Below, in pieces: positions 1,306 to 55,000 of a DNA stretch of 64,000 bases (position 1 is the stretch's first letter; every line of letters begins with the position of its first letter). The notes beneath the pieces were generated by a model. That model was given only the letters and a program-made list of their open reading frames with translations, was not told the DNA's origin and did no database searches. The position numbers and the translations under genes are program-made. The DNA is from Candidatus Lokiarchaeum ossiferum (GTDB lineage: Archaea > Asgardarchaeota > Lokiarchaeia > Sigyniarchaeales > Promethearchaeaceae), in contig CP104013.1 of NCBI GenBank assembly GCA_025839675.1, positions 2,913,121 through 2,977,120 on the forward strand, written 5' to 3'.

Positions 1306-4300
1306 ATGACCGAATCGAACGATATTCTTGCCTATCCAACTTCACAATCGGAAATACAGACGATTGAAAAAAATGAGGAGAAACAAGATATTTTAGGTCC
1401 GTCCTTCGATCAGGATTTAACCAAGGTAAAAAATGTAAAAATACACAAAATTATTCTGGAGAATTTTCTCTCGTTTGAGCACGATGAGGTGATTTTTGAT
1501 CCTGAATTCTCCATTATCACCGGTCCAAATGGTGCGGGAAAGAGCACCATTTATCAAGCCCTTAAATTTGTTTTAGGCTCCAATGATTATGACGGTCGTT
1601 ATGGAAAATGGGCCGATTTTATCAGGTCTGGAGCAAATTCAGCCTTAGTTCAAGTACATTTTGAGATAGACTCTCAACATTATATCATTCAACGTAGCGT
1701 AGAACGAAACAAAGCACCAACATTTGCAATTCAATATCCAAAAACCAAAAAAATTCAACGAACTAACGTTAAAACGATTCGAAATTTTTCACAGACCATC
1801 AGAATTGATCCCGATAACATTTTTTCTTTTATGTCACAAGGTAATATTGATTCAATCAAGGATTTCAAAGAGGAAACTTTATGCAATTTTGTAGAGGTAG
1901 GGATAGGGGTTGATATTTTACGCCATCAAATTTTGGATCAAAAACAGAAGATTGAAGCATTAGTGCGAGAAAACACAGTATTGCAAGCGCGAAAAGAGAA
2001 TTTAACGTATCAATTAGTTGAATTGGAGCCAAAATTAAAGAAACTTGAGAAAAAGAAAGAATTCCTTCAAAAACTGGATCTTTTAGAGGATGAATTATTA
2101 TGGAATCAGCGAAAAGAAATTTTACAAGCCATTCAAGAGAAGGAACAAGAAATTCTCCTCCAACAAACGCGGTGTACTAATATTGCTTTGGAAATCCAGA
2201 AACTAGAAGTAGAAGTAAGTGAGAAACAAACAAAAATTAATTCCGAAAACTCATTATTGGAACAGATTCAAACAGATTTAGCCACAAAGTCTGCCCGATT
2301 ACAAATTATTACAGATGAAATAACAAAAAAAACCACAGAAAAAAATAATATTGCAGAAAAAATTGAAGATTTAAGTAAGGAAATTGAACTTTATACATCC
2401 GATGCAAAAACTTGCGCAATTAAAATGGATGCGTCAAACAAACAGCTTGAGCAAATTGAAATTAAGATAAGCAATCATGAAAAAGAATTAAACACGTTTC
2501 AAGAAGAAGAACGTGAATTGAATAAAGAATTTCATACCCATCAAAAAATATTACTCGAGTACCAAGCCAAGACCTCCCAGAAACAAAATGAAATCCAACG
2601 GTTAGAAGAAATTACTAAAAGACATCAGGAATTAGAAGAAGAAATTGCCAGAAAAATTAAGGATATTAAAAAGATTAGAAACGACTTAGAAGCGTTTAGT
2701 TGGTTTATGAAAAATCCAAGATCCGATCTCCAATCTCGAATGATTGTGGTTTCTCAAAAATATGAATCTCAAATTACTCAAATCACTAACGACATTCAAG
2801 ATTTAGATAAGATTTACAAAGAGATAATTGAGAAAATCGAAAAAACAAAACATTCGGTGTACGATAAAGAAATGCCCAAACCCAAAGCAATTCAATCCAT
2901 GATGCAAGAAATTCGGGAGAGAAAATTACATTGTTTTGGACCCCTCATTGATTATATTTCCTTTGATGGATTATTTCAGAAAGCAATTGCATCAATATTT
3001 GGATCTCGTGTGTTAAATAGCTTCATAGCCAAGGATAATGAAACTTTTGCGCAATTGAAAAATATGGCTCAACGCTTTCGAGCTCAATGTAATATCTATT
3101 TGGAACGATCCAATCCCCTCCGGAAGCTTGCAGAACCACAAAATGCTGGGAAGAATGGTATTTTTGGATACATGGTAAACCAAATCGATTATTTAAATCC
3201 AGATATTGCGATTAAAAAAGTGATATATAGTGTCGCTAATCGAACGCTAATAGTTAAAGACCACATTACCGCTATAAATTTCGTTCAAAATTATAATTAT
3301 GACTCATGGATCGTCACCTTGGATGGAGAACAAATACGACCAAAGAAATTGGTGATTGAATCAAGACCTCATTTGACAAATAAAAACCAAATAAATTTTG
3401 CTAATGTGGCTCAAGCTAAACAATATTTAATCGAACTCAATGAAAAAGCAGAAATGAATCGGAAGGAAGTTAATCAACGCAAGCAGTTACAATTAGAAAA
3501 ACAGAATAAAAGGAAAATTCTCCAAACGAGATTAACCCAAATTGAAATGCTACTAACAAAATATAAGCTTCTCGAAATGGGTACTCTTCGGAAAAATAAA
3601 CTCATCTCTGAACGCGAAAAAGCATATCATAAGATGGAACTGGTGAAGGAAACTTGTGTAAATTTAGACTTGGAATTAGAGAAAATCAAATCGAATCTGC
3701 CCAAAGAAACCTTATCGGGACAAGAACGACTTGAAATACTCCCCCATTTAATCCAAAATTACCAAAACGAGCTGCAACAATATCAAAATACAAAAACAAA
3801 CTATAAGGAGGAACTCCAAAATCTTAAAATTGAGAAATCTACAATTGATACCAGTATATCCTTAAAAAATCAAGAAAAAGAAACTATTGAGACCAATTTA
3901 AAGAAGTTTGATGGTGAATTTTTTAACCTGTTTAAAGAAAACATGGGTTTAAAGACAGAAATAGATACCTTAAAGAAAGAAAAAACAAACCTTTCTCATC
4001 AACTCAAAGAATATATCCAATCCATTTCCATTTTGAATAAAGAAATAAGTACAAAAAATTTTGACAAGCTAAAAATTGACTTAAATATCGAAAAAATAAC
4101 GGAATTTATCTCAATCAATCAGCAAAAGTTGGACCAAATAGAACTAACATTTAAAGATAAAAAAACCCATTTTGTCCAAGATCGTTCCTTTCAAGAAATT
4201 GCCACCGATATTGCATTAATCAAGAAATTTATTAGTAATTATCGTGATATTGATGATTCTATTCTTGTATCAAAAGAAAAAATAGAAAATTCAATAACTC

Positions 4301-4857
4301 GGATCAATGAAAAGCGAGAAATGATTCACGAAGAAATTGATGCTGCCCAAGAAGCTGAAAAAGAATTAGAAGAAGCGTATTATGTAAAATTTGAGAAATC
4401 TATTATCATTTTAGAAGAAGCTATGAATAAGAAATTTTCTGTAGCTGAACTTAATTTCCGTGTACAGTTGAAGCTGAAAGGAGAAATAAAAAACTTAGGA
4501 CTCAATATCAATATTTTCTTTAAAATAGATGGAGAAGAAATGTCGTATCCATTAGCAGCTTTAAGCGGTGGGCAAAGATCCATGGTAGGAATATGTCTTA
4601 TGCTTTCCTTGAATCAGCTTAATCCTTCACCTCTTAATATTTATGATGAATGTGATATGTTTCTAGATGAAAAAAATGCTCAAACTGTTGCAAAACTTGT
4701 TTATCAACTCGCTCAATCTGGAGTTCAATTTGTCATCTTAATGCCTAGTAAAAATAAAACCCTATTACAACTAGCTAATAAAGTCATAGGTGTTAGTCGA
4801 AATGGTAAAAATGGACCTTCAACAGTCCATTACAGCCGACCAATGAAAAGGAGCTAG
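1306..4857 (+). CDS. smc: SMC (structural maintenance of chromosomes) ATPase
   Basis: 1183 aa. N-terminal Walker A 'ITGPNGAGKST', long coiled-coil arms rich in E/K/Q/L, central hinge-like segment ('GPLIDYISFDGLFQKAIASIFGSRVLNSFIAKDNETF...'), C-terminal ABC signature 'LSGGQRSMVGICLMLSL', and Walker B / D-loop 'IYDECDMFLDE'. Confidence 0.85.
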   Translation: MTESNDILAYPTSQSEIQTIEKNEEKQDILGPSFDQDLTKVKNVKIHKIILENFLSFEHDEVIFDPEFSIITGPNGAGKSTIYQALKFVLGSNDYDGRYGKWADFIRSGANSALVQVHFEIDSQHYIIQRSVERNKAPTFAIQYPKTKKIQRTNVKTIRNFSQTIRIDPDNIFSFMSQGNIDSIKDFKEETLCNFVEVGIGVDILRHQILDQKQKIEALVRENTVLQARKENLTYQLVELEPKLKKLEKKKEFLQKLDLLEDELLWNQRKEILQAIQEKEQEILLQQTRCTNIALEIQKLEVEVSEKQTKINSENSLLEQIQTDLATKSARLQIITDEITKKTTEKNNIAEKIEDLSKEIELYTSDAKTCAIKMDASNKQLEQIEIKISNHEKELNTFQEEERELNKEFHTHQKILLEYQAKTSQKQNEIQRLEEITKRHQELEEEIARKIKDIKKIRNDLEAFSWFMKNPRSDLQSRMIVVSQKYESQITQITNDIQDLDKIYKEIIEKIEKTKHSVYDKEMPKPKAIQSMMQEIRERKLHCFGPLIDYISFDGLFQKAIASIFGSRVLNSFIAKDNETFAQLKNMAQRFRAQCNIYLERSNPLRKLAEPQNAGKNGIFGYMVNQIDYLNPDIAIKKVIYSVANRTLIVKDHITAINFVQNYNYDSWIVTLDGEQIRPKKLVIESRPHLTNKNQINFANVAQAKQYLIELNEKAEMNRKEVNQRKQLQLEKQNKRKILQTRLTQIEMLLTKYKLLEMGTLRKNKLISEREKAYHKMELVKETCVNLDLELEKIKSNLPKETLSGQERLEILPHLIQNYQNELQQYQNTKTNYKEELQNLKIEKSTIDTSISLKNQEKETIETNLKKFDGEFFNLFKENMGLKTEIDTLKKEKTNLSHQLKEYIQSISILNKEISTKNFDKLKIDLNIEKITEFISINQQKLDQIELTFKDKKTHFVQDRSFQEIATDIALIKKFISNYRDIDDSILVSKEKIENSITRINEKREMIHEEIDAAQEAEKELEEAYYVKFEKSIIILEEAMNKKFSVAELNFRVQLKLKGEIKNLGLNINIFFKIDGEEMSYPLAALSGGQRSMVGICLMLSLNQLNPSPLNIYDECDMFLDEKNAQTVAKLVYQLAQSGVQFVILMPSKNKTLLQLANKVIGVSRNGKNGPSTVHYSRPMKRS

Positions 4858-4860
4858 AAA

Positions 4861-5523
4861 ATGCCGGATCTGTCGAATTTATTGGCGAAAACGACAAGAC
4901 TCAAAGATCGCATGGAAATGGACCATATTTCCCTCATTGAAGAAGATCTGAAATCGATTTTCATAGAATTGAAAGAATTAATATCTCCGAGTGATTTAGA
5001 TCTTGGGATTTCTGTCATGCAAAATGGTACATTGATGCTAGAACAAAAGATTGAAGAAGTGAAACGTTTCATCAATTATTTAACACAAAAGGATCAAATT
5101 TTTCAATTTATCACTTCAACTGCGACGGATCACCAACTAGCAACTATTTTATCACAAGTATGGCATGAACCCATTCAATTACCCTATTTATCAATGAATT
5201 ATCTCGTTGGAAATTGGGCAAAATTAGTAAGAGATAAAAAAATTCACCACACGAAATCAATTCAAGAGATTTCTCCGATTGAAAAGAAAACAGTGGGGAG
5301 TTTCACAGATTTTAGTGATCCCTTTGAAGAACAAATGTTAAGTTATTTAGATCGAATAAAGCCGATCTTACCTGCCACCATGGATGATATTTTAGGACAT
5401 TTTGATAATCCAGATAAATATTTCGAACAATTTTCATATATCCTTCATCTATTGCAAGAAGGATATCTTTACTTTAAAAAATCGACCCAACAATTTATAA
5501 AAGGTGAAATTCAAACTGAATGA
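4861..5523 (+). CDS. scpA: ScpA-like kleisin (segregation and condensation protein A) candidate
   Basis: 220-aa ORF starting 4 nt after the smc stop and overlapping the next gene (operon). C-terminal winged-helix-like segment 'FEQFSYILHLLQEGYLYF' resembles the ScpA C-terminus. The call rests on position plus weak motif similarity. Confidence 0.45.
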   Translation: MPDLSNLLAKTTRLKDRMEMDHISLIEEDLKSIFIELKELISPSDLDLGISVMQNGTLMLEQKIEEVKRFINYLTQKDQIFQFITSTATDHQLATILSQVWHEPIQLPYLSMNYLVGNWAKLVRDKKIHHTKSIQEISPIEKKTVGSFTDFSDPFEEQMLSYLDRIKPILPATMDDILGHFDNPDKYFEQFSYILHLLQEGYLYFKKSTQQFIKGEIQTE

Positions 5524-6067
5524 GTACGCTATTCTATTCCACTTACTATCCAGACAACAAAGTGACAATTCTTTACCCGGTAAAATACTAATTGGTTCCC
5601 ATTCAGAAGAATTAAAGGATAAATTAGGAATGAAAGGCAAAATTGGCCAAGATCAATATCAAAGATTATTAGAGCAGTTTGCAGAAAATATAAAACCTTT
5701 TGGATTAAAAATTCGCCAAAATCCGTTCAATCATTATTGGTATCTAACCCAAAACCATGATATTCAAAACTTATTCGCAGGAAATCCATTTTCTAATAAA
5801 ACACGGTTAGCCGCTACCTTTACGGTGATTCTTTCATTGTGCCTAATCAATTCAGGATCCACAGATCTGGGCACAATCCAAAAAGTACGGAAAAAAATGG
5901 ATATTCAGGGTGATGTGGAAGAATTATGTCAACTATATTTACTTAAACAGTCTGGAAATCAAGTTAAAATTCATGAAAACGTAGGATATTATCTTGATCT
6001 AGACCAATTTTCTCAATTCATGGAAACAGAAGCCTATCGAGCAGGAAATTTAAAGAAAGATCCCTAA
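5504..6067 (+). CDS. scpB: ScpB-like (segregation and condensation protein B) candidate
   Basis: 187 aa with two winged-helix-like halves. The second half, 'RLAATFTVILSLCLINSGSTDLGTIQKVRK...QVKIHENVGYYL', fits the ScpB pattern (L..LAiIAY.QP.T..EI..iRG). It is translationally coupled to the upstream gene. Confidence 0.5.
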   Translation: MKFKLNEYAILFHLLSRQQSDNSLPGKILIGSHSEELKDKLGMKGKIGQDQYQRLLEQFAENIKPFGLKIRQNPFNHYWYLTQNHDIQNLFAGNPFSNKTRLAATFTVILSLCLINSGSTDLGTIQKVRKKMDIQGDVEELCQLYLLKQSGNQVKIHENVGYYLDLDQFSQFMETEAYRAGNLKKDP

Positions 6068-6168
6068 TATTAATAACCATAAGGGGAGTAGTCATATTAT
6101 CTAGATAATATCGTAATAATTGACATGTTTTTTACAAAGACTAGAATATTTTTCGTTAGAGGATAACC

Positions 6169-6486
6169 TTGGGAATATTTACAAAGAAAAAACAATCTGG
6201 ACTCTCATCACGCTATAATAAAGAAGTACATATCAAACAAATTACGATTAATTCTCACCGTGACTTTACCGTTCTTCGTCACAATCTTCTGGATGGAAAC
6301 ATCATGATATGTAATTTAAAACCCCTAGTGCAAATAGCAAAAAAAGATCGTACGAATCAGGATTTGCATAATTCATTACAAAAAATTAAACATTATTGCA
6401 TTCAAAATGGGGCTATGGTCTCAAAATTAGAAGAGAGTTTACTACTTATTACACCTAATTCTGATTTCTTGATCAATTCAGTATAA
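6169..6486 (+). CDS. sepF: SepF-like cell-division protein (DUF552-like)
   Basis: 105 aa. 'IKQITINSHRDFTVLRHNLLDGNIMICNLKPLVQIAKKDRTNQDLHNSLQKIKHYCIQNGAMVSKLEESLLLITPNSDFLI' matches the SepF C-terminal domain pattern (i.v..p.s..d...i...l..G..vilNL..l......R..Dfl.G...a..G.i..i....fLl.P.nv.i). Confidence 0.5.
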   Translation: MGIFTKKKQSGLSSRYNKEVHIKQITINSHRDFTVLRHNLLDGNIMICNLKPLVQIAKKDRTNQDLHNSLQKIKHYCIQNGAMVSKLEESLLLITPNSDFLINSV

Positions 6487-6488
6487 TT

Positions 6489-6956
6489 TTACGACTTAAA
6501 TTTATCAAAGAGGGAACCTAAATCATTTTTTCCCAGATTTTCTAACACATCAATTAAATGATCGAGGGTGACGAACTTTTGAGACCAATCGGCTTCGTCC
6601 ACAGCTCGGATCAAACCGGGTTCAAAAATTGCGCAAGAATATTCCAATCCTTTTGTGCCAGCAATTTGCTTTGGTTCAATTCGAAGATTACTGGGATAAA
6701 ATTTATGCATTGTATCATCAAAAACTCGCCCTTGAACATCAAAATAGCGTGAAGTAGATTCATTAGATTTAACAATTCCAACCCCAACCGAAAATGTAAA
6801 AGAAGAATCGATATTCTGTTCTTGAATTACAATTGCTTCAGCATCATTTTGGGGAAATGGGGTAATTTTTGCTTTTTTTTTTAGAAGAGATTTAATATAT
6901 TTTATTTTAGTTAGTAAATTCATTTTTTTAGTTCCAATTTTATTTTTACAAATCAA
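6489..6956 (-). CDS. hypothetical protein
   Basis: 155-aa ORF convergent with the sepF-like gene; no recognisable motif. The true start may be an internal Met (MNLLTKIKY...). Confidence 0.4.
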   Translation of the reverse strand: MICKNKIGTKKMNLLTKIKYIKSLLKKKAKITPFPQNDAEAIVIQEQNIDSSFTFSVGVGIVKSNESTSRYFDVQGRVFDDTMHKFYPSNLRIEPKQIAGTKGLEYSCAIFEPGLIRAVDEADWSQKFVTLDHLIDVLENLGKNDLGSLFDKFKS

Positions 6957-7296: not shown

Positions 7297-7334
7297 TTCT
7301 AAATCGTCTTAGTTATGAGGAAAAAAAGAACTAC

Positions 7335-8441
7335 TTATCTCTTTAAACGTTCAATAATAGCTGAAGTTAATATCAATTCGTATTTTAAAAAGTTATGACC
7401 ACCTCGCTGTGTTACTAACCAGTTTTCTATAGGAATTTCAGAAGCGGTAATGTTTTTTTTAAAGTTTATAGCTGATATTACTTTATCATTGAGAGAGTGG
7501 ATAAGAAAAAGGCTTTTCGCTGCATATTTTTGCCAATCAACGGTGGAAGTAAATTCTTTTTTCTTTTCTAAAATTTGTAATTCGGGAGAAATTTCTTTTT
7601 TTATTTTAGGAAGTGGATTAATAGGAACACCAAAAAAGGTGTATCGAAGCCAAAACCACCAATTTCGTTTGAAAGGAATAGGCGATGAGGGCATAACATC
7701 CGAATAATCTCCAATACATGCCACTGCAACGATCTTCTCGACACTTAATCCTTGAAATAGTAAACCTTGTTTGATTGATGCAACCGAACCTAAGGAAATT
7801 CCAACCAAATATATAGAGCGACCTTTGAATGCCTCATGATCTTGAAGAAAACGAATTATATCACCCAAGTCATGTGTGATTTCAACAAACTGATTATTTT
7901 TTCCTGCTTTACGCGAACCACTGACTCCTCGACAGTCATAAGCAATCACATCATAGCCAGCAAGAGCAATAGGAACTGTATAATGTCGAACATATTTTGA
8001 ATCATCGGAAAATCCATGAGAAAAAATCACAATGGGAGATTTTTGGGAAGTTCCATTCCAATGAAGTAATTCACCATTTAAAAATGACTCAATTTCTAAA
8101 TTTTCAGTAGGCTTTTCCATTTCCCAAGTGAGTGGGAAAAGAAAAGGAGTTATAGTCACATTGGGATGATTTACGTGTTTTCCGTACCATCGAAATTGCC
8201 AAAAATCACGCATTTCAAAATATAATGCCCAACATACCCACCATAGGATAAAAGTGAAGAGAGAAAGCAATAAATCTCCAACAATAGGGCCTTGATTCGA
8301 TTGAAATAACACATAATTTACATAAAAAATGAAACTTGCTAGGATTAAACCAAGAATAAATAACAAATAATGTTTAGGTCGTATGATCATGATTTTCTTC
8401 CTAAGATAAATTTCTTCCCAATGTCTCTTTAAATTTTGCAA
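7335..8441 (-). CDS. membrane-anchored alpha/beta-fold hydrolase
   Basis: 368 aa. Two N-terminal TM helices, then 'IFSHGFSDDS' (oxyanion HG) and nucleophile elbow 'VGISLGSVAS' (GxSxG). Its start overlaps the stop of the upstream methyltransferase-like gene by 41 nt. Confidence 0.7.
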   Translation of the reverse strand: MQNLKRHWEEIYLRKKIMIIRPKHYLLFILGLILASFIFYVNYVLFQSNQGPIVGDLLLSLFTFILWWVCWALYFEMRDFWQFRWYGKHVNHPNVTITPFLFPLTWEMEKPTENLEIESFLNGELLHWNGTSQKSPIVIFSHGFSDDSKYVRHYTVPIALAGYDVIAYDCRGVSGSRKAGKNNQFVEITHDLGDIIRFLQDHEAFKGRSIYLVGISLGSVASIKQGLLFQGLSVEKIVAVACIGDYSDVMPSSPIPFKRNWWFWLRYTFFGVPINPLPKIKKEISPELQILEKKKEFTSTVDWQKYAAKSLFLIHSLNDKVISAINFKKNITASEIPIENWLVTQRGGHNFLKYELILTSAIIERLKR

Positions 8442-11403
8442 ATTGATCGGATGATAGGGGGAAAGACTTCTTATTAGAGAACAAAGTAAAATAATAATCT
8501 TGATCTTGAGGACATAATTTACTTCCCCCCCGTATTGTTGGTTCCCATGATAATATAGTAGTTATTAATTTTTGTGGGGCTTGATAGATAACACCAAGTA
8601 AAATATCACAAATATCCAGAATAATTTTAATTTCGGAAGAATTAAACCGATTATGGCTTGAATCAAAATTTAGAAACAAATTTTTCATCAAACAACTTGC
8701 AAGCTCATCAATTATTTGATTATACAAATCTAACTTCTCAATTAGATTATCAGGGAGGGGAAATGCTCTCCATATATCAGTATTCATATGGCGTCCATCG
8801 CTATAGATTCGATACCATGTATAAAAAAAGGAACTGTTGAATACAAGGAGAAGCCAATTTCTTAAATAAAGATTTGATACAAGAATATTGCTTGCTGCAA
8901 TTTGGGTTCCATAATAAGGAATTTGATCCCAAGCATTGTACCAGTAATTTCCAGATATTCGATACCATATAACTTCTCCTTTATTAATTTTAACTGGATC
9001 CAATTTTTGTTTCAAATCAACAGGTGCCCGTAATAGTATAGGAGCAGAAAGAATATCACCAAGTACCACATAACGACTGGTGTGAACAGAATTTTTGGAT
9101 GAACTATACGACTGGAATAAAAAAAGCATAGATTGAATTACAGGATCCCCACATTTCGGTAGACGGTGCTTCTGATTGAAAGATGTAGAAATTATTTTCC
9201 CTAACAAGAAATCATTGGCTTTTAGATAGGAAAGATGATCTAAGGAAGGTTTCTTTCTATACATTGAGGTGGTATAGACAGGATAAAAGTGATTAGAACT
9301 ATCTTTAGTATTCTTACAAGGATCAACTTTGAAAAGACCTTGAAGTAACGAAATCGATTGGGTCATCCCTTCAAAAAAACGACATTTATCCCGGTCAAAA
9401 GACGCAATCAATGAGACTTTATATGTTGAAGCAAGTTTTGCGCGAGTTTGTGAGAGATCTTTGCTAAAACAGAGGACATATGAAGTGATAAAATTCAGAA
9501 CTCCTTTTTCTCGATTCAAATTTAAGGCTCGTTCGATAAATACAGAAGAAATTTCTTTTGGGAAAGAAGCATATTGAGAAACGAAATGTTTTTCTTTGGG
9601 AGAAAGCAAATTTCCATAGGGAGGATTACCTAAAATGACATGAAATCCAGGAGAAACACTATAGTTATTGGAAAATGTATGGGATAAATTATTCGTCTTT
9701 CTGTTAGTTGAACTAGGTTGAGGAGGGCGAAGAAATATTTCCGGAAATTCTATCAACCAATGAAATAATTCTTGATTGTTTTCATCGGATTTGTTTTTTG
9801 AAGGAATATGATACAACAAATTGCATAAATTCTTTGTGTTATGGTATATTTCCTTATAGTATTTTTCAAGTAAAGAATAATGTTGTGTTCCCACTTCATT
9901 AAGTAAAATTAAGCGTGAATTTAAATTGAGATTTAGAATTTCCCTCATTTCGTCAATTAAATGTGAAATTTTTTCAACCTTGATTATTGAATAAGATTCT
10001 TCATTGCGATGATGAAGGTTAGGATATAACCGAAGAAATTCTTTAGCATATTTTTGGGATTTTAAGTTAATTTTATAAAGTTCTATTGCATTGCGAATAA
10101 TTTGTTTTAGAATCTTGGTAAAATCATCCATAATTAAAGAATTAAATGTGAATGAATCTTTCTCTTCAATTTTATTTTGAAGTTCTTCTATACTTAAAAT
10201 TCCTGTTAACGAATTTCCCCTTCTAATATTAAGCTTTACTGGAACGAGACCTTCGATTTTAACAAATTTGTACATTTTTGAAGAGATTAAAGTCATAAAA
10301 CACCTTAACTTTGCAATAATTACAGCTTCAGGGTTGATATCCACCCCGTAGATCTGTTTTGGAAGCAAAATGTTTAGGGATATAATAAATTGGAACTGTT
10401 TCAATGAGGGAAAATCGGTGAAATATGGCTGAAATAAGGATTGTGATAATAAAAACGACTTTACTTTTTCAGATGATTGAATCTTGGCAAGATTCCACCA
10501 AAATTCATAAATCTCTTGAAGCTTTTTAATAGCACCTATCAAAAAATGACCTGAACCCATGGCGGGATCTAGTATCCGAAGAGAGGTCAGAACATAATAG
10601 AGAGAAATAAGCCAATTTTCTTGTTCTTTGAAACTTAATGAATCGTATTCAATTTGAAGAAGCTGCAAAATTGAATGAGACATATTAAAAGGAAAAGGAT
10701 CTTGAACAATAGAGTTCTTAAAAATTTGATAAAATGATAATTGATGAAAAATAGCTTTTTTTGCTAAAAACTGAGTTATATTTTGGGGAGTGTAAAAAGC
10801 ACCGGTAGAAGCACGAGTTTTTTCAGACATAAGATGCTCATACAGAGCACCTATTGTATATTCAGTGATTTTCCCAATATTCGCTTCATATAATTGAAAA
10901 CAATTTACTAAGGGAAGTGTATCAGGAAGACTGGAAGCCAAACCACGCAAAGATCCAAATTTGATATTCTTGCTATTGAAATTTTCACAAAAATAGCCAT
11001 TGTCTCCAAAAGCATATTGAATAAAGCCTCCCCAATCATTATTGCGAATGTTCATTTGTAAAGGTTGAAAGGGGAAGAATTCTTGCCAATCGGCTTCAAT
11101 TTTATGCGAAACAAAAATAGAATTAAAAATGTGAGTTAAAATCGTGCAATATTGCATGTTAGGGGGGCTATGATTTGAAAGATATGCTTCCATTTTAGGA
11201 TCACAAGAAGAAGAGAGCTTAACCATCCATTGTGGGTGTGAAAAAAAACTTTCTTGATCCAAACGCCAAACCCACATCATTAATAAAATAAACTGATCGA
11301 TATTTTTTGAAGTAACTGAATAAAGAGCAAGCGATTGCAAATATTTTTTGGTCTTCTGAAAGAGAACTAAAAAAAAGCGGATAGAAGTAATTTTATTCTT
11401 CAA
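8401..11403 (-). CDS. gamma-class N6-adenine DNA methyltransferase-like protein (Eco57I/MmeI/PglX-like MTase core, large insertion, C-terminal TRD-like region)
   Basis: 1000 aa. Motif X 'GAFYTPQNITQFLAK', motif I 'LDPAMGSGHFLIGA' and motif IV 'VILGNPPYGNLL' are present, with about 320 aa inserted between motifs I and IV. A roughly 400-aa C-terminal region is TRD-like. No obvious PD-(D/E)xK nuclease motif was seen in the roughly 200-aa N-terminus. Confidence 0.75.
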   Translation of the reverse strand: MKNKITSIRFFLVLFQKTKKYLQSLALYSVTSKNIDQFILLMMWVWRLDQESFFSHPQWMVKLSSSCDPKMEAYLSNHSPPNMQYCTILTHIFNSIFVSHKIEADWQEFFPFQPLQMNIRNNDWGGFIQYAFGDNGYFCENFNSKNIKFGSLRGLASSLPDTLPLVNCFQLYEANIGKITEYTIGALYEHLMSEKTRASTGAFYTPQNITQFLAKKAIFHQLSFYQIFKNSIVQDPFPFNMSHSILQLLQIEYDSLSFKEQENWLISLYYVLTSLRILDPAMGSGHFLIGAIKKLQEIYEFWWNLAKIQSSEKVKSFLLSQSLFQPYFTDFPSLKQFQFIISLNILLPKQIYGVDINPEAVIIAKLRCFMTLISSKMYKFVKIEGLVPVKLNIRRGNSLTGILSIEELQNKIEEKDSFTFNSLIMDDFTKILKQIIRNAIELYKINLKSQKYAKEFLRLYPNLHHRNEESYSIIKVEKISHLIDEMREILNLNLNSRLILLNEVGTQHYSLLEKYYKEIYHNTKNLCNLLYHIPSKNKSDENNQELFHWLIEFPEIFLRPPQPSSTNRKTNNLSHTFSNNYSVSPGFHVILGNPPYGNLLSPKEKHFVSQYASFPKEISSVFIERALNLNREKGVLNFITSYVLCFSKDLSQTRAKLASTYKVSLIASFDRDKCRFFEGMTQSISLLQGLFKVDPCKNTKDSSNHFYPVYTTSMYRKKPSLDHLSYLKANDFLLGKIISTSFNQKHRLPKCGDPVIQSMLFLFQSYSSSKNSVHTSRYVVLGDILSAPILLRAPVDLKQKLDPVKINKGEVIWYRISGNYWYNAWDQIPYYGTQIAASNILVSNLYLRNWLLLVFNSSFFYTWYRIYSDGRHMNTDIWRAFPLPDNLIEKLDLYNQIIDELASCLMKNLFLNFDSSHNRFNSSEIKIILDICDILLGVIYQAPQKLITTILSWEPTIRGGSKLCPQDQDYYFTLFSNKKSFPLSSDQFAKFKETLGRNLS

Positions 11404-12244
11404 TTTCTTTCAATTCAACAATAGTTTTATCACGTAATATGGTAGGCTTTGCAGATAATCGCATTTCATCAAGACTGAGTTGTTGTTTAGTGTTTTGCAC
11501 AGTATGCTTTAATATCACGCGAATATTAATTCCAATTGCTGCGGTTGAACTTATCCAGGCAATGCACATCCACATTACAAATAGCATAATTTGTAATCGA
11601 GGGATCAAATAAGGATCAGTATACCCAGAATCTAAGCTGAAAATTGCGATTCCTTTTTGAAGATAAAAGAAAACTCCAAGAATAATTCCTTCACTTACAA
11701 CCGCACAGATGATCAAGAAAATTCTTCGAGTGATGAGGGAATTAAGTGCATAAACACCTCCAATTCCAATTGTTATCCATGCAAAAATGATAGAAAGGGC
11801 AAAATTTTCTTCAAAAACTTCATGCGACGGCATTAATATATTATTCTCTATAGTCCAGCCAATAACGCGAAAGCTGTTGATGAGAATTAATAAGAAAGAA
11901 AGAGAATAAAGTAACCCTAAAATCATAAGAAAATTCATGGATATAGTGCGATCTTCCTTAAATCGAGATGCATCAATATTTTCTCCTAAAAGAAGATCAA
12001 TTTCTGCTTGAATTTTTAAAGGAATGGCATCAGAAAGAATTTCTAAGGAGTAGGAAGGAAATTTGTTTAAAATATCTTGACTGCTTTGGAGACCTTGTTC
12101 TCGTTCCTCTGCTTTGCATTTCGATCCAGAATAAAAATAAACTTTACGTTGGTCATTTTCGATAAGCAATGCGACATCATGAGGGAATAAATCTTCCGCT
12201 TCAATCCAGTCTTGCTTTGCGTGATCATAGATATAAACAAACAT
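11393..12244 (-). CDS. membrane protein with soluble N-terminal domain (unknown function)
   Basis: 283 aa. An N-terminal roughly 110-aa soluble region is followed by 5-6 predicted TM helices. It overlaps the start of the MTase-like gene by 11 nt (translational coupling). Confidence 0.55.
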   Translation of the reverse strand: MFVYIYDHAKQDWIEAEDLFPHDVALLIENDQRKVYFYSGSKCKAEEREQGLQSSQDILNKFPSYSLEILSDAIPLKIQAEIDLLLGENIDASRFKEDRTISMNFLMILGLLYSLSFLLILINSFRVIGWTIENNILMPSHEVFEENFALSIIFAWITIGIGGVYALNSLITRRIFLIICAVVSEGIILGVFFYLQKGIAIFSLDSGYTDPYLIPRLQIMLFVMWMCIAWISSTAAIGINIRVILKHTVQNTKQQLSLDEMRLSAKPTILRDKTIVELKEIEE

Positions 12245-12321
12245 TATACTAATATTATTGCTTCAGTTAATAAAAAATTTGATCACTGAAAATTAAATTC
12301 AAAGAGTAAATAAAAAACAAA

Positions 12322-13224
12322 CTACAAGGATGATTTGATCTGTTTTGCTCGAGTTCGTAAAGTTACTTCAGTTATTCGCGCAGTATCGGCAATTTCAGTC
12401 TGTGTTTTTCGTTCAACTGTTGGTTTAGCGGCCAGATACAATGCTGCTGCCGCCAATCCTTTAGGGTCTTTTCCCATCTTTTGAAGGCCATGTTTAAGTG
12501 CTAAGCGAAGTAAATCTGAAGCCTTTTTTTGAATACTTACGGAAATATTAAGATCATTTCCAAATCGGAATACAAGGGGTTCTGGGGAAACTGGTCGATA
12601 TTTCATATTCAGAACTGGAAGCACATTCCGTACAACTAAACCTAATGATCTGTGAACCCCTCTTAAAGGAAGCATTGCAACATCCACAATTTCTTCTAAT
12701 AAACGTGGAAAGTTATGAATTCGAATTGCGGCATAAGTAGAAGCAGCAACAAAAGAATCTATTGACCGTCCCATTGTTAATTTTTGTTTGGCGACTTCAG
12801 AGTAGATCTTCCACGCAGTTTCTAAGATATGATCGGGAATATTAAGCTTTTTAGCTAATTGATTAATTTTTGGTCGTGCTTCCCAGAAATTTCGTTCAAG
12901 GGAATTTACTAACGATCCTTGAATTTTGGAGAGCCTGTTGAACATTGATTTCTGCTTCCCGACTAAAGCTTGTCCTTTGGAATCAGAACTATTCACACCA
13001 ATTACTGTTCGTGGACCATAATTTCTCCAACGAGGTTCGGTTCGCCGACGATTTTTAACTTCATCGGCTGTATAAGCCCGTTTTTCAGCAGAAACATAAG
13101 CACGTCCTAAAACTAAACCACAGTTAGTGCACACACGCATACCTTCATTATTGACAAGTATTTCAGGAGTAGGGCAGCATTGTTCATCTTCATAATCTTT
13201 TTCATAAAATCTTGGAATGGCCAT
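12322..13224 (-). CDS. tfb: transcription initiation factor TFB (TFIIB homolog)
   Basis: 300 aa. N-terminal Zn ribbon 'CCPTPEILVNNEGMRVCTNCGLV', followed by two cyclin-like repeats. Confidence 0.85.
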   Translation of the reverse strand: MAIPRFYEKDYEDEQCCPTPEILVNNEGMRVCTNCGLVLGRAYVSAEKRAYTADEVKNRRRTEPRWRNYGPRTVIGVNSSDSKGQALVGKQKSMFNRLSKIQGSLVNSLERNFWEARPKINQLAKKLNIPDHILETAWKIYSEVAKQKLTMGRSIDSFVAASTYAAIRIHNFPRLLEEIVDVAMLPLRGVHRSLGLVVRNVLPVLNMKYRPVSPEPLVFRFGNDLNISVSIQKKASDLLRLALKHGLQKMGKDPKGLAAAALYLAAKPTVERKTQTEIADTARITEVTLRTRAKQIKSSL

Positions 13225-17130: not shown

Positions 17131-19224
17131 CTACAAGTTTTTCACTTCATTGAAGAGTTGATCAGAAGCGGCCTTTAATTCTTCTGCACCAGCACTTAAT
17201 TCTTCTAGGGTAGCAGCCATTTCTTCTGTGGAGGATGAAACTTCTTCTGTAATAGAGGAATTTTGTTCCACAACAGCGTTTATTTTTTCTACATTCTTAG
17301 CAATATCCTTGATATGAGTATCTTCATTTTCAATATTTGATGCAGATTCGGTGATTCCAACATCTGTTTGTACAATAACATCAAAGAGTGATTTAAGTTG
17401 ACTTCGAGTTTCTTGAATTGCAGTTATTCCAGCCTCAACAGATTGAGATGTAGCGGTTGTATTACCCACAGCTTCGCTAATACCATCTAAAATAATTTTA
17501 ATCAACTCATTAATTTGATCTGCAGCTTGCTTCGAATCTTCAGCGAGTTTACGCACTTGTTCCGCCACTACAGCAAACCCCTTCCCAGCATCACCAGCAC
17601 GGGCCGCTTCAATTGCAGCGTTAAGAGCGAGTAAATTTGTTTCTGTTGCAATTCCTGAAATTACATCAACAATTTTATTAATTGCCTGACTTTTTTCGGA
17701 TAGCTCATTCATTACCATATTCACTTTACTGGCATTTTTACTGATGTCGTCCATTTTTTCATTGATATTATCGGTCAATCGTTCACTTTCACGGGCCATC
17801 TCTTTACCATTCCGCGAAAGATCAACAACATGGCTAATTTTTCCAACAACTTCGGAGCTTAATATTTGAATTTGCTCAACCGCAGAGAGAATGTCATTCA
17901 AAGTTTGCGTCTGTACCTGAGCACCATTTGCGACTTCTTGAGAACCGGAAGTGATTTCTTGAACAGAAATATTGATTTGACCTGTCGAATCAGCAATTTG
18001 AGAGGCCATGCTGTTTACTTCTTCGGCAATCACTTTTACAGAAGATGAAAATCCTTTTTTGGCAGTAATATCTTGGAATTGTTGAAGAGAATATTGTAGA
18101 TCACCACCTTCATTAAACAACGAAAATGTATAAACATCAAGATAGACTTTCTTATTGGTTTTAGGATTAAGAAATATGTAGCTATCTTCAATAATTTTCT
18201 TGGTTTTTACTGCTTGCGCAATTAAAGTTTCGTTTTGACTTTGTATTTTTTCTTGGAATACTTCATAACTGATTTTGCCTATAATTTCATTTTGGGATAA
18301 TCCAAATATTCTAATTAGGGAATTATTTATCCGTTCAATCTCAAATCGAGGATTTATAACTGCCATAGGGGTAGGCATTTTATCAATGATTCCATTTATA
18401 ATTTGCATTTCTTCTTTGATTTTGGTAACCATCAGAGAAAAGGAATGGGATAAATCTCCGAATTCATCATCAGATTGAGTTTCAATTTGTACCGTATAAT
18501 TACCTTCCGCCACTTTCGTACTACCTTTGGATAAGATTTTGAGTGGCTTTACAATGACATAGTTGCTACTTACCACAAGTAAACCAGTTCCGAGGATTGC
18601 CACAATTACCGTAATCAATATCGAGGTATTTATTTGAGCTTGGACAATGTCATCTACATCATTAATATAAATTCCTGTCCCCACGATCCACCCCCAAGCA
18701 TCTAATTTACGAACATATGACTTTTTAGGTTCAATTCGATTTTCATCACTATAGTATTTCCATTCATAATCAACAAATCCATCTTTATCGGTTTCCTCAC
18801 ATGTTTGCATCATTTCAACGAATAAATGCTTCCCATTAGGATCAACATTTCCAGATATATCAGTACCATCAAGATGGGGGGAATTTGGATGCATGACCAT
18901 ATAAGGTGTATTATCAATTGTTTCCTGAATCCAAAAATAATCGAGAAGATCGGATCCATAACGATAATTTTTTATCATCTCTTTTGCAGTATTTTTTGCT
19001 TCAATTTCAGTGATATTACCATCAGTGAAATAATTATAGTATTGCAATATAGAGGATTCCGCCAAGTCCACCATGCTTTTCAAGTTATTTTCCTTTTCAA
19101 GATACATATTGCTTCGTGTTTGAATTGAAGTAGATAGTACAGTTGCCACAGAAAACAACACAATTGGAACAAGTCCAATGGCTAAAATTTTTATCCGAAT
19201 AGATATTCTTACACTTTTATTCAT
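17131..19224 (-). CDS. methyl-accepting chemotaxis protein (dCache sensor-TM-HAMP-PAS-MCP signalling domain)
   Basis: 697 aa. N-terminal TM, a roughly 170-aa extracytoplasmic Cache-like region and a second TM, then the highly conserved MCP signalling hairpin '[32 protein letters not shown]'. Confidence 0.85.
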
Positions 19225-52046: not shown

Positions 52047-55000
52047 ATGCCCGTCGTAATGTCCGAGAAAAGTAAAAAATATTTTGATAAAATTGAAGAA
52101 GATGTCAATAAAATTTATGAATTTGCCAATAAAGCTCGTGCTATAGGAATTGATCCAGCTCCTGAAGTGGAATCACCTCCTGCCCGAGATATGGCAGGAC
52201 GGGTTGAAAAGTTAGTTGGACCTGAAGGAATCGCCCAATATTTGCGGGAGTGGAAGGAAGCAGGAGAAGATCAAGATGAAAGTTGTTTTCGAGCAATGGA
52301 TTGGATCATCGATGGGAAATTTGGAAAGCAATATGATCCCAATGAAGCGGTTGATCTAGCAATTCGTGTCGCTTTAGCAATAAAAACGGAAGGAGTTGTC
52401 TCAGCACCCTTAGAAGGTATTGCAAAAGTCGTCATTCGAGAAAATTTAGCAGGGGGAGAACCGTACTTAGCACTTTATTTTGCAGGACCAATTCGAGCAG
52501 CAGGGGGAACAGTCCAAGCTTTTGCAGTATTGTGTGCTGAACACGTTCGTCGAAAAATGGGGATCGCAGAATGGAAAGCAACCCCCGATGAAGTGGGACG
52601 ATTTGTTGAAGAAGTGAAACTTTATGATCGAATTATGAACTTGCAATATCCCTCCACACAAGAAGAGTTAGCCTTTGCTGTCGAACATCTGACGATTGAA
52701 CTTAATGGAGATGCAACAGAGACCCAAGAAGTTTCAGCTTATCGAGATTTGCAACGTATTGAAACGAATTTTGTACGGGGAGGACCTTGTTTAGTTTTGA
52801 ATGATGGGGTTTTGCTTAAGTCTAAGAAAATTTTACGTGTTATTGATAAGCGGAAGATCGAGGGGTGGGATTGGCTCCGAAAATTAAAAAAATTGGCTCA
52901 TGCAGATACTAAAAAGAAAATAGATGAGGACGGGAAAGATAAAGCTAAGGATTATGGAGGAGACACTTACAAAGGTAAAAAGATCATTGAGGAAGAAGAA
53001 AAAGTTGAAGTTATAGCTGAATCCCCAGTGCAAAAACGCCAAGAATACTTGAATGAAAAAAATCCGCCTCTCAATAAATTCATTGCAGACATTATTGCTG
53101 GTCGCCCCGTTTTTGCTTATCCCTCTCGAATTGGAGGTCATCGCATAAGATATGGACGATCACGCAATACAGGTCTTGCCGCATGTGGCACGCATCCATC
53201 CCAAATGATTCTATTAGAGAGATATATGGCTATTGGCACCCAGATCCGAATAGAAAGACCGGGGAAAAGTGGGTCTACGATGCCTGTCACATCTATCGAA
53301 CCACCAATCGTTTTAATGAAAAATGGCGATGTAAAGCAACTTTGGGACATAAAGGAAGCTGCTGATATTGCGGACAATCGATTAACGGCTAAAATTCTCT
53401 TTTTAGGAGATATGCTTTTTGGGTATGGAGAATTTGCAGAAAATAATCACACAGTTCTTCCATCAGGCTATTGTGAAGAATGGTGGGCAGTGGAATTAGA
53501 AGATAAAATTCAAAAGATGACCGCTGACGGAGGCACACCCTTTACCGATCTTCCAGAAGATCTATCTCAACCAATAATTGAAAAAATGATCACAAATCCT
53601 TTTGATGAAATTCCCAATGGTCGCCAAGCTCTTGAACTTTCACGTAAGTATGATGTGGGAATCCATCCTCGCAGTTTAGATCATTGGGGAAATATTAATG
53701 CGGTTGATCTTTTGGCAATTCGGAAGCAATTTGGTTTAGGACTTTGTAAATTATTCAAAGTTGCCAATACATCTGATCTTTCTATTGAAGCGCCATCTTT
53801 AACCCAATTAGAAACTAAGTTCCAGGATGGATTTGACCTTCCCATAACTTCCGAAACCAAAAAATTCTTTGAAACCGCTTACACCCCCCATCAAAATTAC
53901 GATTCATATATACATATTGATCCAAACCGTGCGATTATTTTTTATGAGCTCTTTGGATTTGGGACATCATCCGTTTATACTTCCGAAGCAGAACAGAAAG
54001 CTCCCGAATTGACGGCATTGGATCTATTTCCTTACCTTACTTCTATCCGAGTTAATGATAAAGCCCCCCACTACATGGGAAGTCGGATGGGCCGCCCCGA
54101 AAAAGCAAAAGAGCGCAAAATGCGCCCTCCTGTTCATGGTTTATTTCCCATCGGACATGATTCCAAACTTCAACGGAGCTTTCAATCCGCTGCAGGAGTA
54201 GCCTACATTGAAGTGGAATTGGGACAAAAATCATGTCCAAAATGTAATTCCAATACATTTTTAAACAAATGTCCAAAATGTGGAACCTTGACCAACTTTA
54301 AAAAAATTTGTTCCCGTTGTAACAAACTGTACGATCAACAAGACACCGAATGTCCCGATTGTAATAGCTTTTTATCCAGTACTTCCCTAAAAAAAATCCC
54401 TTTCAAGAAATATTTTGAAGTGGCCGCCAGTCATATTGCCAAGACCATCCCCTCCTTGAAAGGCGTTAAAGGTATGACTTCCGAATACAAAATTCCAGAA
54501 CCGATCGAAAAGGGTATTCTACGAGGAATTCATGATGTATATGTTTATAAAGATGGTACAATTCGAGCCGATGCTACTGATATACCCTTAACCCATTTTA
54601 CTTGCCGTGAAATCAATACATCGGTCGAGAAAATCCTAGAACTCGGGTATGATCTTGATATCTATGGGAAACCCATTACCGATGAAAATCAGGTAATCGA
54701 GATAAAAGTGCAAGATGTTCTCCTCACCCATCACTTAGGTGATTATTTCGTCAAAGTGGCTAATTTTGTGGATGATGAACTTCATTACCTCTACAAACAA
54801 CCTAAATTTTATAATGTAAAAGATAAATATGATCTTATTGGCCACTATATGGCAGGCTTAGCCCCCCACACTTCGGCCGCTATCATTGGACGGTTAATTG
54901 GCTTTACATATGCGGAATCAGGCTATGCTCATCCTTATTGGCACGCCGCGAAACGTAGAAACTGTGATGGTGATGAAGACGGAATCATGTTGCTCCTGGA

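Follow-up and report, generated by a model that had tools for sequence, protein, structure and literature searches.

A conserved solitary N6-adenine methyltransferase gene of Lokiarchaeia, probably domesticated from a restriction-like pair, lies between two membrane-protein genes

The central gene of the three-gene group analysed here probably encodes an N6-adenine DNA methyltransferase (MTase) that is solitary and inherited vertically, a 'persistent orphan' domesticated from a restriction-like pair. It looks like a domesticated methylase and not like a new defence system. We propose that its ancestor served as the modification subunit in a two-gene system, which would have combined a PLD/HKD-SNF2 nuclease-helicase with an Eco57I-type MTase bearing a target-recognition domain (TRD). 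Both the nuclease-helicase partner and an N-terminal extension of the MTase would have been lost in the ancestor of the sampled Lokiarchaeia, and the MTase gene would have been fixed between the genes of a Loki-specific gelsolin-domain membrane protein and of a membrane-anchored, esterase-type hydrolase. The whole stretch of DNA that was analysed, 64 kb in length, is called the window below.

Organization of the locus

Three co-directional open reading frames on the minus strand form the group: 11393-12244 (283 aa), 8401-11403 (1000 aa) and 7335-8441. The genes and their putative signals are:

12268..12277, minus strand: T/A-rich box TTTTTTATTA, ~28 nt before the ATG; candidate archaeal TATA element of the three-gene unit
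11393..12244, minus strand: gene of a membrane protein (283 aa; 100% identity to L. ossiferum B35 NEF87_002464)
8401..11403, minus strand: gene of a 1000-aa Eco57I-family gamma-class N6-adenine MTase, TTG start
7335..8390, minus strand: gene of a 351-aa membrane-anchored alpha/beta hydrolase, true start ATG 8390
7321..7330, minus strand: T-run TTCTTTTTTT, 4 nt past the hydrolase stop; candidate archaeal terminator of the unit

The first-pass annotation had described an overlap at each end of the MTase gene, 11 nt at its start and 41 nt at its stop, and only the former proved to be real. The MTase TTG (11403) and the stop codon of the upstream gene (11393-11395) do overlap by 11 nt, since the codons upstream of Met42 evolve like coding sequence: when the 41 codons before Met42 were compared with those of a 69%-identical relative, 25 were identical, 7 were synonymous and 9 non-synonymous, and codon position 2 held 1 of the 22 differences. 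These codons encode an N-terminal helix, FFxxFxKxxxY, which is present in every Loki MTase ortholog examined. The first MTase start codon lies within the upstream gene in 9 of 10 loci (overlap -4 to -38 nt), and in 8 of 9 loci compared it falls inside the conserved ..KEIE.. codons of that gene. At one Loki locus (L023), however, an 82-nt gap precedes an MTase gene with an ATG start, so the start overlap is dispensable. By contrast, the 41 nt apparently shared with the hydrolase gene result from choosing the longest TTG-initiated frame and are not genuine. The hydrolase protein is conserved only from MIIRPKH (ATG 8390) onward, 10 nt past the MTase stop (8401-8403). In the 69%-identical relative the hydrolase is without any upstream extension, and both database annotations give the protein as 351 aa. 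Across loci the spacing from MTase to hydrolase gene ranges from -4 to +66 nt.

Judged from sequence, TTTTTTATTA may serve as the TATA element of the three-gene unit in this genome of 32% GC; a similar A3-T6 box stands at equal distance in the 69%-identical relative and in the Promethearchaeum loci. The T-run TTCTTTTTTT may act as the terminator of the unit, and T-rich stretches follow the hydrolase stop in several orthologous loci, though not in all. The three genes are probably carried on one transcript, and ribosomes that have completed the upstream gene are probably needed for translation of the MTase from its weak TTG. An 85-aa plus-strand frame within the hydrolase gene (7450-7707) was judged spurious.

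The methyltransferase and its motifs

The domains and motifs of the 1000-aa protein are:

10819..11403, minus strand: N-terminal helical domain, aa 1-195, non-nuclease
10786..10806, minus strand: TGAFYTP, aa 200-206
10543..10569, minus strand: motif I DPAMGSGHF, aa 279-287, AdoMet-binding loop
9664..10203, minus strand: variable helical spacer ('insertion'), aa ~401-580, the least conserved segment
9616..9627, minus strand: motif IV NPPY, aa 593-596, catalytic
8404..9318, minus strand: TRD-like domain and helical tail, aa 696-1000, with motifs HRLPK, SGNYWYNAW and NSSFFYTWYRIYSDGRHMN

The family assignment is clear. Pfam Eco57I (PF07669) matched at 84.8 bits against a cut-off of 25.3 (E 9.5e-24), and the MmeI_Mtase Pfam domain was also matched. 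The gamma-class motifs noticed at first reading were confirmed, with GNPPYG spanning aa 592-597; motif I (aa 279) precedes NPPY (aa 593), which is the gamma order, and both are kept in all orthologs. TG(A/T)(F/Y)YTP occurs in 11/11 Loki sequences (that of the window plus 10 orthologs), as do intact active-site motifs, motif I is shared by all Loki orthologs and the bacterial relatives, and NPPY is invariant in 20/20 aligned family members. The dN/dS of 0.22 indicates purifying selection, and the MTase is the fastest-evolving gene of its block. The enzyme most likely binds AdoMet through motif I and flips the target adenine into the NPPY pocket.

A sequence search against PDB sequences gave no match. 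In Foldseek the top match was BrxX/PglX (9ewz_C, E 2.6e-12), followed by CamA and MmeI, with M.BseCI and LlaBIII also found; the top structural neighbours listed are all DNA MTases or restriction-modification enzymes with TRDs, several of them solved bound to DNA. The best PADLOC profiles were DrmMI, Type IIG and PglX. No transmembrane segment was predicted in the MTase. The absence of a PD-(D/E)xK nuclease, also claimed earlier, was upheld: aa 1-195 gave no Pfam match and are modelled by AF2 as helices with no beta-strands. The AF2 model, built from generic Eco57I relatives, is of mediocre quality (mean pLDDT 65), and its TRD part is uninformative.

The long insertion between motifs I and IV, put at about 320 aa in the first-pass annotation, is present as a spacer of 313 aa but is not a special feature, the same distance being 293-322 aa in other Lokiarchaeum-like genomes, 133-164 aa in Promethearchaeum and 144-282 aa in bacterial and DPANN relatives. 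Its extra part (aa ~401-580) is only 16-21% identical between Loki genera, is mostly missing from Promethearchaeum and is modelled as long helices with pLDDT <50.

The C-terminal part was correctly recognized as TRD-like. Pfam TaqI_C gave no direct match in the MTase; hhalign of the family C-terminus against the TRD region of PF12950-bearing generic Eco57I MTases, a TaqI_C-type region, gave a probability of 93% (E 3.4e-7). In the TRD, sequences from different Loki genera are 42-46% identical, and most bacterial and DPANN relatives are 34-40% identical to them. By these comparisons the domain appears to be of TaqI_C type and unusually conserved rather than hypervariable, and it would read a fixed DNA motif. 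The description as a gamma-class N6A MTase-like protein that has its TRD at the C-terminus and carries no fused nuclease thus holds.

It could be argued that the MTase no longer methylates DNA and instead acts on RNA or protein, or persists as a non-catalytic DNA-binding scaffold. NPPY enzymes do include RNA and protein (HemK-type) methyltransferases, and the evolutionary rate of the MTase is relaxed relative to neighbouring genes. However, the AdoMet-binding and catalytic motifs are all invariant across genera, the structural neighbours named above are enzymes of DNA, and the TRD is homologous to DNA-reading TaqI_C-type domains. We therefore regard this reading as highly improbable.

Conservation and synteny in Lokiarchaeia

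The MTase occupies the syntenic position in 12/12 Loki loci with readable flanks, in the genera Lokiarchaeum and Promethearchaeum; the loci compared are those retrieved by pattern matching. In the window the trio is neighboured by TFB, RtcB, CSD, SepF-like, SMC and other genes. A housekeeping block of about 10 genes (TFB, the trio, CSD, SepF-like, ScpB/A-like and SMC) is common to all Loki loci as far as contigs reach. The order and tight spacing of the trio are kept wherever the contig extends to the flanking genes, so the placement of the MTase tightly between two membrane-protein genes, which the earlier reading had wished to see checked in related genomes, is conserved and is not an assembly artefact. 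In a neighbour-joining tree the Loki MTases are monophyletic, with a Bipolaricaulota sequence as sister.

Recent horizontal acquisition of the MTase was ruled out by its GC content, which equals that of the flanks, by the syntenic locus and by the monophyletic clade. One fixed locus, a vertical-looking monophyletic phylogeny and a conserved TRD make the gene unlike defence genes, which are patchy and hypervariable. When viral contigs were scanned for the family, all that came up were matches of 22-23% identity. Virus-borne copies, which would suggest an active restriction barrier, are thus not indicated.

Relatives outside Lokiarchaeia and loss of the partner at the Loki locus

Homologs outside Lokiarchaeia are 30-40% identical over the C-lobe and TRD of the MTase and have HRLPK, SGNYWYNAW and DGRHMN in common with it. 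They are preceded, usually with an overlap, by a PLD+SNF2 gene of ~1100-1200 aa. By Pfam this gene lies upstream at loci L011, L015, L016, L018 and L022, and locus L014 holds a helicase C-terminal fragment at the contig edge; the PADLOC profile 'HKD+Snf2' matched the partner gene with E 2.7e-156. Neighbouring genes include Schlafen/AlbA, Fic, GmrSD and OLD, which are defence-island contexts. The window MTase thus belongs to the same sequence clade as the PLD(HKD)-SNF2 + Eco57I-type MTase modules (PADLOC C3a139 'HKD+Snf2'). It is different from these modules in two respects: the Loki loci have no helicase-nuclease gene upstream of the MTase (0/12 loci with readable upstream flank), and the Loki MTases are missing the ~110-280 extra N-terminal residues carried by all bacterial and DPANN relatives except that of locus L021.

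The MTase could still be the modification half of a working restriction system whose nuclease-helicase has been relocated in the genome, with the membrane genes irrelevant. The family is otherwise tied to PLD-SNF2, and restriction-type genes are plentiful in MK-D1, with 4 Type IIG, 2 Type III Mod and 11 Type II MTase genes (PMC10609329). We nevertheless consider relocation unlikely. Where both bacterial or DPANN genes were identified they are adjacent and usually overlapping, which suggests an obligate co-expression that was lost in Loki, and the Loki proteins are without the N-terminal extension of nearly all partnered homologs. The fixed locus, the monophyletic clade and the conserved TRD also speak against it, and no PLD-SNF2 partner was found among the large ORFs scanned in the 64-kb window.

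Comparison with known defence and orphan systems

The PLD-SNF2/MTase modules are similar to the pair of effector and MTase found in 'Type-2 BREX-related (BR)' systems (PMC12839542). No DUF499 ATPase or DUF3780 was found in the window or in the loci of the bacterial relatives. The latter are therefore not strict Type-2 BR members, for which these genes are defining (PMC12839542), and a Type-2 BR identity was ruled out for the window as well.

BREX PglX/BrxX is the best full-length structural match of the window MTase (9ewz_C as above; also 8c45) and has the same layout, namely a helical N-domain, an MTase interrupted by a helical insertion and a TRD at the C-terminus. PglX is also the best NCBIfam match, but NF033452 scored 75.9 bits, far under its curated cut-off of 500. 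As the first-pass annotation had stated, no BREX, Type I or Type III partner genes were found among the flanking ORFs scanned (for BREX: PglZ, BrxC/PglY, BrxA/B and BrxL), and BREX was ruled out by the missing partners and the sub-threshold score. DISARM class 1 DrmMI is the best PADLOC profile (E 2.9e-25, aa 259-641) and has a similarly long spacer between motifs I and IV; DISARM was ruled out in the same manner, by sub-threshold scores and because none of DrmA (helicase), DrmB (DUF1998), DrmC (PLD) and DrmD was seen in the flanks here or in 12 orthologous loci. Type IIG/IIL enzymes (Eco57I, MmeI, DrdV) have the Eco57I and MmeI_Mtase Pfam domains and the fused TRD in common with the window MTase. 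Unlike them, the window MTase lacks a nuclease domain at its N-terminus, whether PD-(D/E)xK or of another type, which ruled out Type IIG.

A further parallel is with persistent orphan MTases such as Dam, CcrM and C. difficile CamA. Like these, the Loki MTase has no cognate nuclease at its locus, a single lineage-wide locus, purifying selection and a conserved specificity domain, and CamA is among its top fold matches. It differs from them by its much larger size (1000 aa), its BREX/DISARM-like architecture and its position between membrane-protein genes. Persistent orphan MTases are documented in archaea, including two BREX-like ones (PMC10609329).

Possible role of the methylation

A partner-less methylase at one locus in all the Lokiarchaeia loci recovered could set an m6A mark of housekeeping type in Asgard archaea, where DNA methylation is essentially unstudied. 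The mark would be set on the chromosome for a non-defence purpose, such as the timing of replication or segregation, repair, or transcription. Literature searches turned up no methylome of Lokiarchaeia and no biochemical work on the enzyme in L. ossiferum or MK-D1, and for the single Asgard genome surveyed in PMC10609329 no methylation data are tabulated. Given the conserved TRD, a class-wide motif should emerge from the methylome of L. ossiferum B35 or of P. syntrophicum MK-D1, the two cultured strains. In annotation pipelines and defence-system finders, REBASE-style ones included, the label of this gene would probably be Type IIG, PglX or DrmMI. If our reading is correct, it is a clean example in which the modification half of a BREX/DISARM-like helicase-nuclease system was exapted.

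The flanking membrane proteins and the three-gene arrangement

The upstream protein is polytopic, as first described, with four transmembrane helices, and comprises:

11975..12244, minus strand: gelsolin-homology (GH) domain, aa 1-90, secondary structure bbbb-long helix-b-helix
11504..11944, minus strand: four-helix transmembrane bundle, aa ~101-247, AF2 and hydropathy in agreement
11396..11503, minus strand: conserved, predicted cytoplasmic C-tail (..RLSAKPTILRDKxxVELKEIEE), whose last codons hold the MTase start

In the AF2 model the transmembrane helices are at 101-129, 141-172, 175-196 and 216-247 (pLDDT mostly 85-96). Residues P267-T-I-L270, D272 and E280 of the C-tail are invariant. The hydrolase was likewise correctly taken for a membrane-anchored alpha/beta hydrolase. 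It has two transmembrane segments (9-27 and 40-58), Pfam matches to Hydrolase_4 (PF12146, 43.7 against 27) and Abhydrolase_1 (PF00561, 41.7 against 25.8), and an intact triad of Ser199 (GISLG), Asp302 (HSLND) and His332 (GGHNF) in 351-aa numbering; HGF, GxSLG, ND and GGHNF are kept in 10 orthologs.

From the positive-inside rule, the soluble domains of all three proteins are predicted to be cytoplasmic. This would suit a reading in which the three genes make up a single functional module, a membrane-associated system of a new kind with an epigenetic or defensive role; the C-tail would dock the MTase at the membrane or actin cortex, and the hydrolase would be effector or lipid-remodelling partner. 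The conserved order and tight spacing point the same way, as does the MTase start inside the ..KEIE.. codons. The PTILRD tail is found in nearly all members of the closest subfamily of GH-4TM proteins, whose genes precede the MTase, and in none of the more distant GH-4TM subfamilies. The conserved start overlap and a C-tail that tracks with the presence of the MTase are a hint of a link closer than mere adjacency. On the other hand, the trio is never seen beyond the TFB-to-SMC block, so its adjacency has no independent support and conservation of the trio is inseparable from that of the whole block. Distant GH-4TM genes precede a Rio2 kinase gene, with neither a hydrolase nor an adjacent MTase gene. 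The gap and ATG start at L023 and the extra gene that locus L024 tolerates just upstream argue in the same direction, PADLOC had no match for either membrane protein, and core-genome behaviour is atypical for defence systems. We consider a single three-gene module to be unlikely. The undescribed three-gene defence system suggested in the first-pass annotation is not supported, in view of the distant membrane-protein branch, of trio conservation that is inseparable from that of the block, and of the MTase itself, whose relatives pair with PLD-SNF2 and whose Loki gene is fixed in a housekeeping block with a conserved TRD; the epigenetic role proposed beside it is the better supported half of that interpretation.

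A more specific form of physical module would have the lineage-specific tail PTILRDKPPVELKEIE recruit the MTase to the membrane or Lokiactin cortex, the helical N-domain of the MTase having replaced the dock for the helicase-nuclease. Methylation would then be tied in space or time to chromosome segregation and cell division, which the SMC, ScpAB-like and SepF-like genes nearby would fit, and the esterase would act in the same process. We think this quite improbable, and the solitary orphan MTase is our preferred reading.

The GH domain itself has the gelsolin/cofilin fold, as indicated by fold and profile matches, the best being Thor ProGel. When PDB sequences were searched with the GH family profile, ProGel ranked first (E 0.0031); Pfam Gelsolin (PF00626) scored 12.9 bits, below its cut-off of 21 (E 0.1). 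The fold of the N-terminal 90 aa is thus common to this protein and the Asgard gelsolins ProGel, 1DGelX and 2DGel, and the fusion of a GH domain to a four-helix transmembrane bundle is absent from the Asgard gelsolin architectures described (PMC7444086, PMC9433394). Should the GH-4TM protein bind Lokiactin, it would link actin directly to the membrane, which would bear on the protrusions of these cells, on their crawling motility and on the origins of the eukaryotic cortex. The GH-4TM family comprises ~90 sequence clusters; the canonical IYxWxG is replaced by VYFYSG in the window protein, and distant members carry IYLWxGPKS.

Locus organization and gene junctions

The trio comprises genes for a membrane protein with a gelsolin-homology domain and a four-helix transmembrane bundle (GH-4TM), an Eco57I-family gamma-class N6-adenine methyltransferase (MTase) and an alpha/beta hydrolase.

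Features of the trio and its neighbours (window coordinates)
12322-13224, minus strand: TFB
11393-12244, minus strand: GH-4TM membrane protein, 283-aa ORF (related proteins P0221-P0308; loci L029-L059 of relatives)
8401-11403, minus strand: MTase, 1000-aa ORF
8404-9318, minus strand: target-recognition domain (TRD)-like C-terminal domain of the MTase (homologs in loci L004-L021)
7335-8441, minus strand: alpha/beta hydrolase, longest ORF
Beyond the hydrolase gene, convergent: cold-shock-domain (CSD) gene
6489-6956, minus strand: 144/155-aa ORF, no family match
6169-6486, plus strand: adjoining 105-aa SepF-like protein

The GH-4TM protein matched NEF87_002464 from the 6.04-Mb genome of Candidatus Lokiarchaeum ossiferum at 100% identity, and the MTase was 97% identical to a protein of the second L. 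ossiferum genome. The window carried archaeal markers (TFIIB, RtcB, PolD large subunit, an intron-containing tRNA), and the trio genes showed no GC difference from its ~32%. The PolD large subunit (DP2) gene (52047-55721, plus) had a noticeably higher local GC (0.39-0.40 vs ~0.32). A 117-nt tRNA (58274-58390, plus), presumably with an intron, was detected by Rfam and missed by ARAGORN, and a 697-aa Cache-HAMP-PAS-MCP chemoreceptor-type protein was encoded at 17131-19224 (minus) in this Asgard genome.

The first-pass annotation had proposed that the MTase start overlaps the membrane protein gene by 11 nt, while the NCBI annotation begins the MTase at Met42. Compared with a 69%-identical relative, 25 of the 41 codons 5' of Met42 were identical, 7 synonymous and 9 non-synonymous, codon position 2 holding just 1 of 22 nucleotide differences; a helix encoded there (FFxxFxKxxxY) was found in all Lokiarchaeial orthologs examined, Promethearchaeum syntrophicum MK-D1 included. 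Because these 41 codons evolve as coding sequence, the overlap is, on codon comparison, real. The first MTase start codon overlapped the GH-4TM gene in 9/10 loci and was a TTG inside the conserved ..GAAATTGA.. (..KEIE..) codons in 8/9 compared junctions; the exceptions were a GTG overlapping by 4 nt at one locus and, at another, an ATG that an 82-nt gap separates from the upstream gene. A further overlap of 41 nt, claimed between the MTase and the hydrolase, turned out to be spurious: hydrolase conservation starts at MIIRPKH (ATG 8390), 10 nt past the MTase stop, the gene of the 69% relative has no extension 5' of it and the protein is 351 aa long in both database annotations, so the longest ORF was rejected as an artefact. 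An 85-aa ATG ORF antisense within the hydrolase gene (7450-7707, plus) is probably spurious too.

The N-terminus of the hydrolase forms a transmembrane hairpin (9-27, 40-58), and the Ser-Asp-His triad is complete and shared by all orthologs; the nearest named families of the hydrolase were generic esterases and lactonases, with very low scores. Further on, the 144/155-aa ORF occupied the same place in most Lokiarchaeial loci reaching that far (40-57% identity), and the 105-aa protein had weak similarity to SepF (E 0.002) and likewise to BasC (E 0.003).

Architecture and conservation of the methyltransferase

The gamma-class motifs reported for the 1000-aa protein were all found (TGAFYTP at aa 200, DPAMGSGHF at aa 279, GNPPYG at aa 592), the Pfam Eco57I score was well over threshold, and every Lokiarchaeial ortholog retained TG(A/T)(F/Y)YTP, DP(A/S)xG(S/T/A)G, (Y/F)G(V/I)D(I/L)N and NPPY. 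The supposed insertion of about 320 aa was over-read, although 313 aa do separate motifs I and IV. Other Lokiarchaeum-like genomes have 293-322 aa between these motifs, Promethearchaeum has 133-164 and the bacterial and DPANN relatives have 144-282, and DrmMI profiles cover a comparable distance; the segment was the least conserved of the MTase and was modelled by AF2 as long helices at low confidence. By sequence comparison, it is a length-variable spacer. The MTase has no nuclease domain: residues 1-195 had no family match and were modelled as helices without beta-strands, in agreement with the earlier statement that no PD-(D/E)xK nuclease is obvious. The best full-length structural match was BrxX/PglX, followed by orphan CamA, MmeI, M.BseCI, LlaBIII and DrdV; the MTase scored far under the cut-off of the curated PglX model.

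Besides the window, 12 Lokiarchaeial loci had a readable upstream flank (given as L001-L006, L008, L009, L023-L025), including two L. ossiferum genomes, MK-D1 and several MAGs. The neighbourhood was conserved: as far as each contig reaches, the order was TFB, membrane protein, MTase, hydrolase and CSD (opposite strand), then the 144-aa ORF, the SepF-like gene, two small genes in ScpB/ScpA position (unrecognised by Pfam and NCBIfam in the window) and SMC. No helicase or nuclease gene was found in any of the 12. One contig (L024) carried an additional 1002-aa Eco57I + N6_Mtase + TaqI_C gene (3851-6859, minus), on the opposite strand between TFB and the GH-4TM gene, directly upstream of the trio.

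Across genera, the MTase kept 30-46% identity to its window counterpart, the membrane protein 36-45%, the hydrolase ~50%, SMC 41-44% and TFB ~80%; MTase divergence is therefore roughly what its slower-evolving neighbours would predict. Against the 69% relative, the MTase dN/dS of 0.22 indicated purifying selection, yet it was the most relaxed of the block (membrane protein 0.15, hydrolase 0.12, SMC 0.07). By hhalign (probability 93%), the C-terminal domain is a homolog of the TaqI_C-type TRD found in ordinary Eco57I enzymes. Identity in this domain was 42-46% from one Lokiarchaeial genus to another and 34-40% with most relatives among bacteria and DPANN, exceeding that of the catalytic-domain N-lobe even when Lokiarchaeia are compared with bacteria (34-40% versus 21-34%). 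Specificity domains are not usually so conserved, which points to a target motif held in common or to an additional role.

Origin of the methyltransferase

A genome scan with the family-specific peptides EIYEFWW and NYWYNAW recovered 19 loci, 7 of them from Lokiarchaeia and the others from Bipolaricaulota, Minisyncoccia, Halanaerobium, Altarchaeum, Aenigmatarchaeota, Caldisericota and unclassified bacteria and archaea. In a neighbour-joining tree, the Lokiarchaeial MTases formed one clade with the Bipolaricaulota protein as sister. Where non-Lokiarchaeial loci had sufficient upstream sequence, the MTase (914-1289 aa, mostly with ~110-280 extra N-terminal residues relative to Lokiarchaeial proteins) was preceded, usually with overlap, by a gene for a 1086-1206-aa protein with an N-terminal PLD/HKD nuclease domain and an SNF2 helicase (Pfam), which PADLOC assigned to 'HKD+Snf2' (E 2.7e-156) ahead of DrmD, BrxH and DpdE. 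Neighbouring Schlafen/AlbA, Fic, GmrSD and OLD-family nuclease genes are defence-island company. These pairs share the effector/MTase logic of Type-2 BR (PMC12839542) but are not strict members, because neither DUF499 nor DUF3780 was found in their loci.

Persistent orphan MTases have been documented for archaea, two BREX-like MTases among them (PMC10609329), and the window MTase matches the published signature by its fixed locus, vertical descent, conserved TRD and partner loss. The same features leave the proposal of a new defence system unsupported; otherwise the first-pass description was largely correct, apart from the 41-nt overlap and the insertion. The MTase is best explained as a domesticated, persistent orphan enzyme that is predicted to methylate DNA at N6-adenine and derives from a PLD-SNF2/MTase restriction-like pair. 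The nuclease-helicase partner would have been lost at this locus in Lokiarchaeia, and in the loci recovered the MTase gene is fixed between those for a gelsolin-domain protein with a membrane anchor and a membrane esterase.

The gelsolin-domain membrane protein and the trio as a possible unit

The 283-aa GH-4TM protein had no match in Pfam, NCBIfam or PADLOC. Its AF2 model (21 homologs, pLDDT 78) comprised an N-terminal alpha/beta domain, four long transmembrane helices and a disordered tail, and the positive-inside rule would place the GH domain and C-tail on the cytoplasmic side. An exhaustive profile search gave 91 cluster representatives (50% identity), most of 255-320 aa and matching across the GH domain and bundle; distant members have the canonical gelsolin signature IYLWxGPKS. 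Published Asgard gelsolins include ProGel, 1DGelX and 2DGel (PMC7444086, PMC9433394), and five GH proteins were co-immunoprecipitated in L. ossiferum. The three Asgard actin-regulator papers covered make no mention of a transmembrane form, and Co-IP in one of the studies, by its own account, probably under-represents membrane proteins.

Functional or physical coupling of the three products is a minority possibility. In favour of a functional unit, order, tight spacing and the MTase start overlap are conserved across Lokiarchaeial loci, a T/A-rich box lies ~28 nt before the first trio gene, also in relatives, and a T-run follows the last; the PTILRD...KEIE tail is confined to the closest GH-4TM subfamily, whose genes precede an MTase in every known context. 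Against it, the trio was never seen apart from the larger syntenic block, so its adjacency lacks independent support; one Lokiarchaeial locus lacks the overlap, another accommodates the extra MTase gene, and 31 metagenomic loci of a distant subfamily (~260 aa, IYLWxGPKS present, C-tail absent) had neither an adjacent MTase nor the hydrolase. Taken together, co-transcription and translational coupling are therefore likely.

Where ORFs were read, the distant GH-4TM gene had 2-oxoacid:ferredoxin oxidoreductase genes on one side and the Rio2 kinase gene on the other. Six of these loci (L029, L032, L035, L049, L053, L055) encoded a different, short (679 aa) Eco57I/TaqI_C MTase in the same orientation, ~3.6 kb downstream (e.g. 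L035:10360-12399), beyond Rio2, small SAM-MTase, LSm, GGACT and phosphoesterase genes; this proximity may be coincidence.
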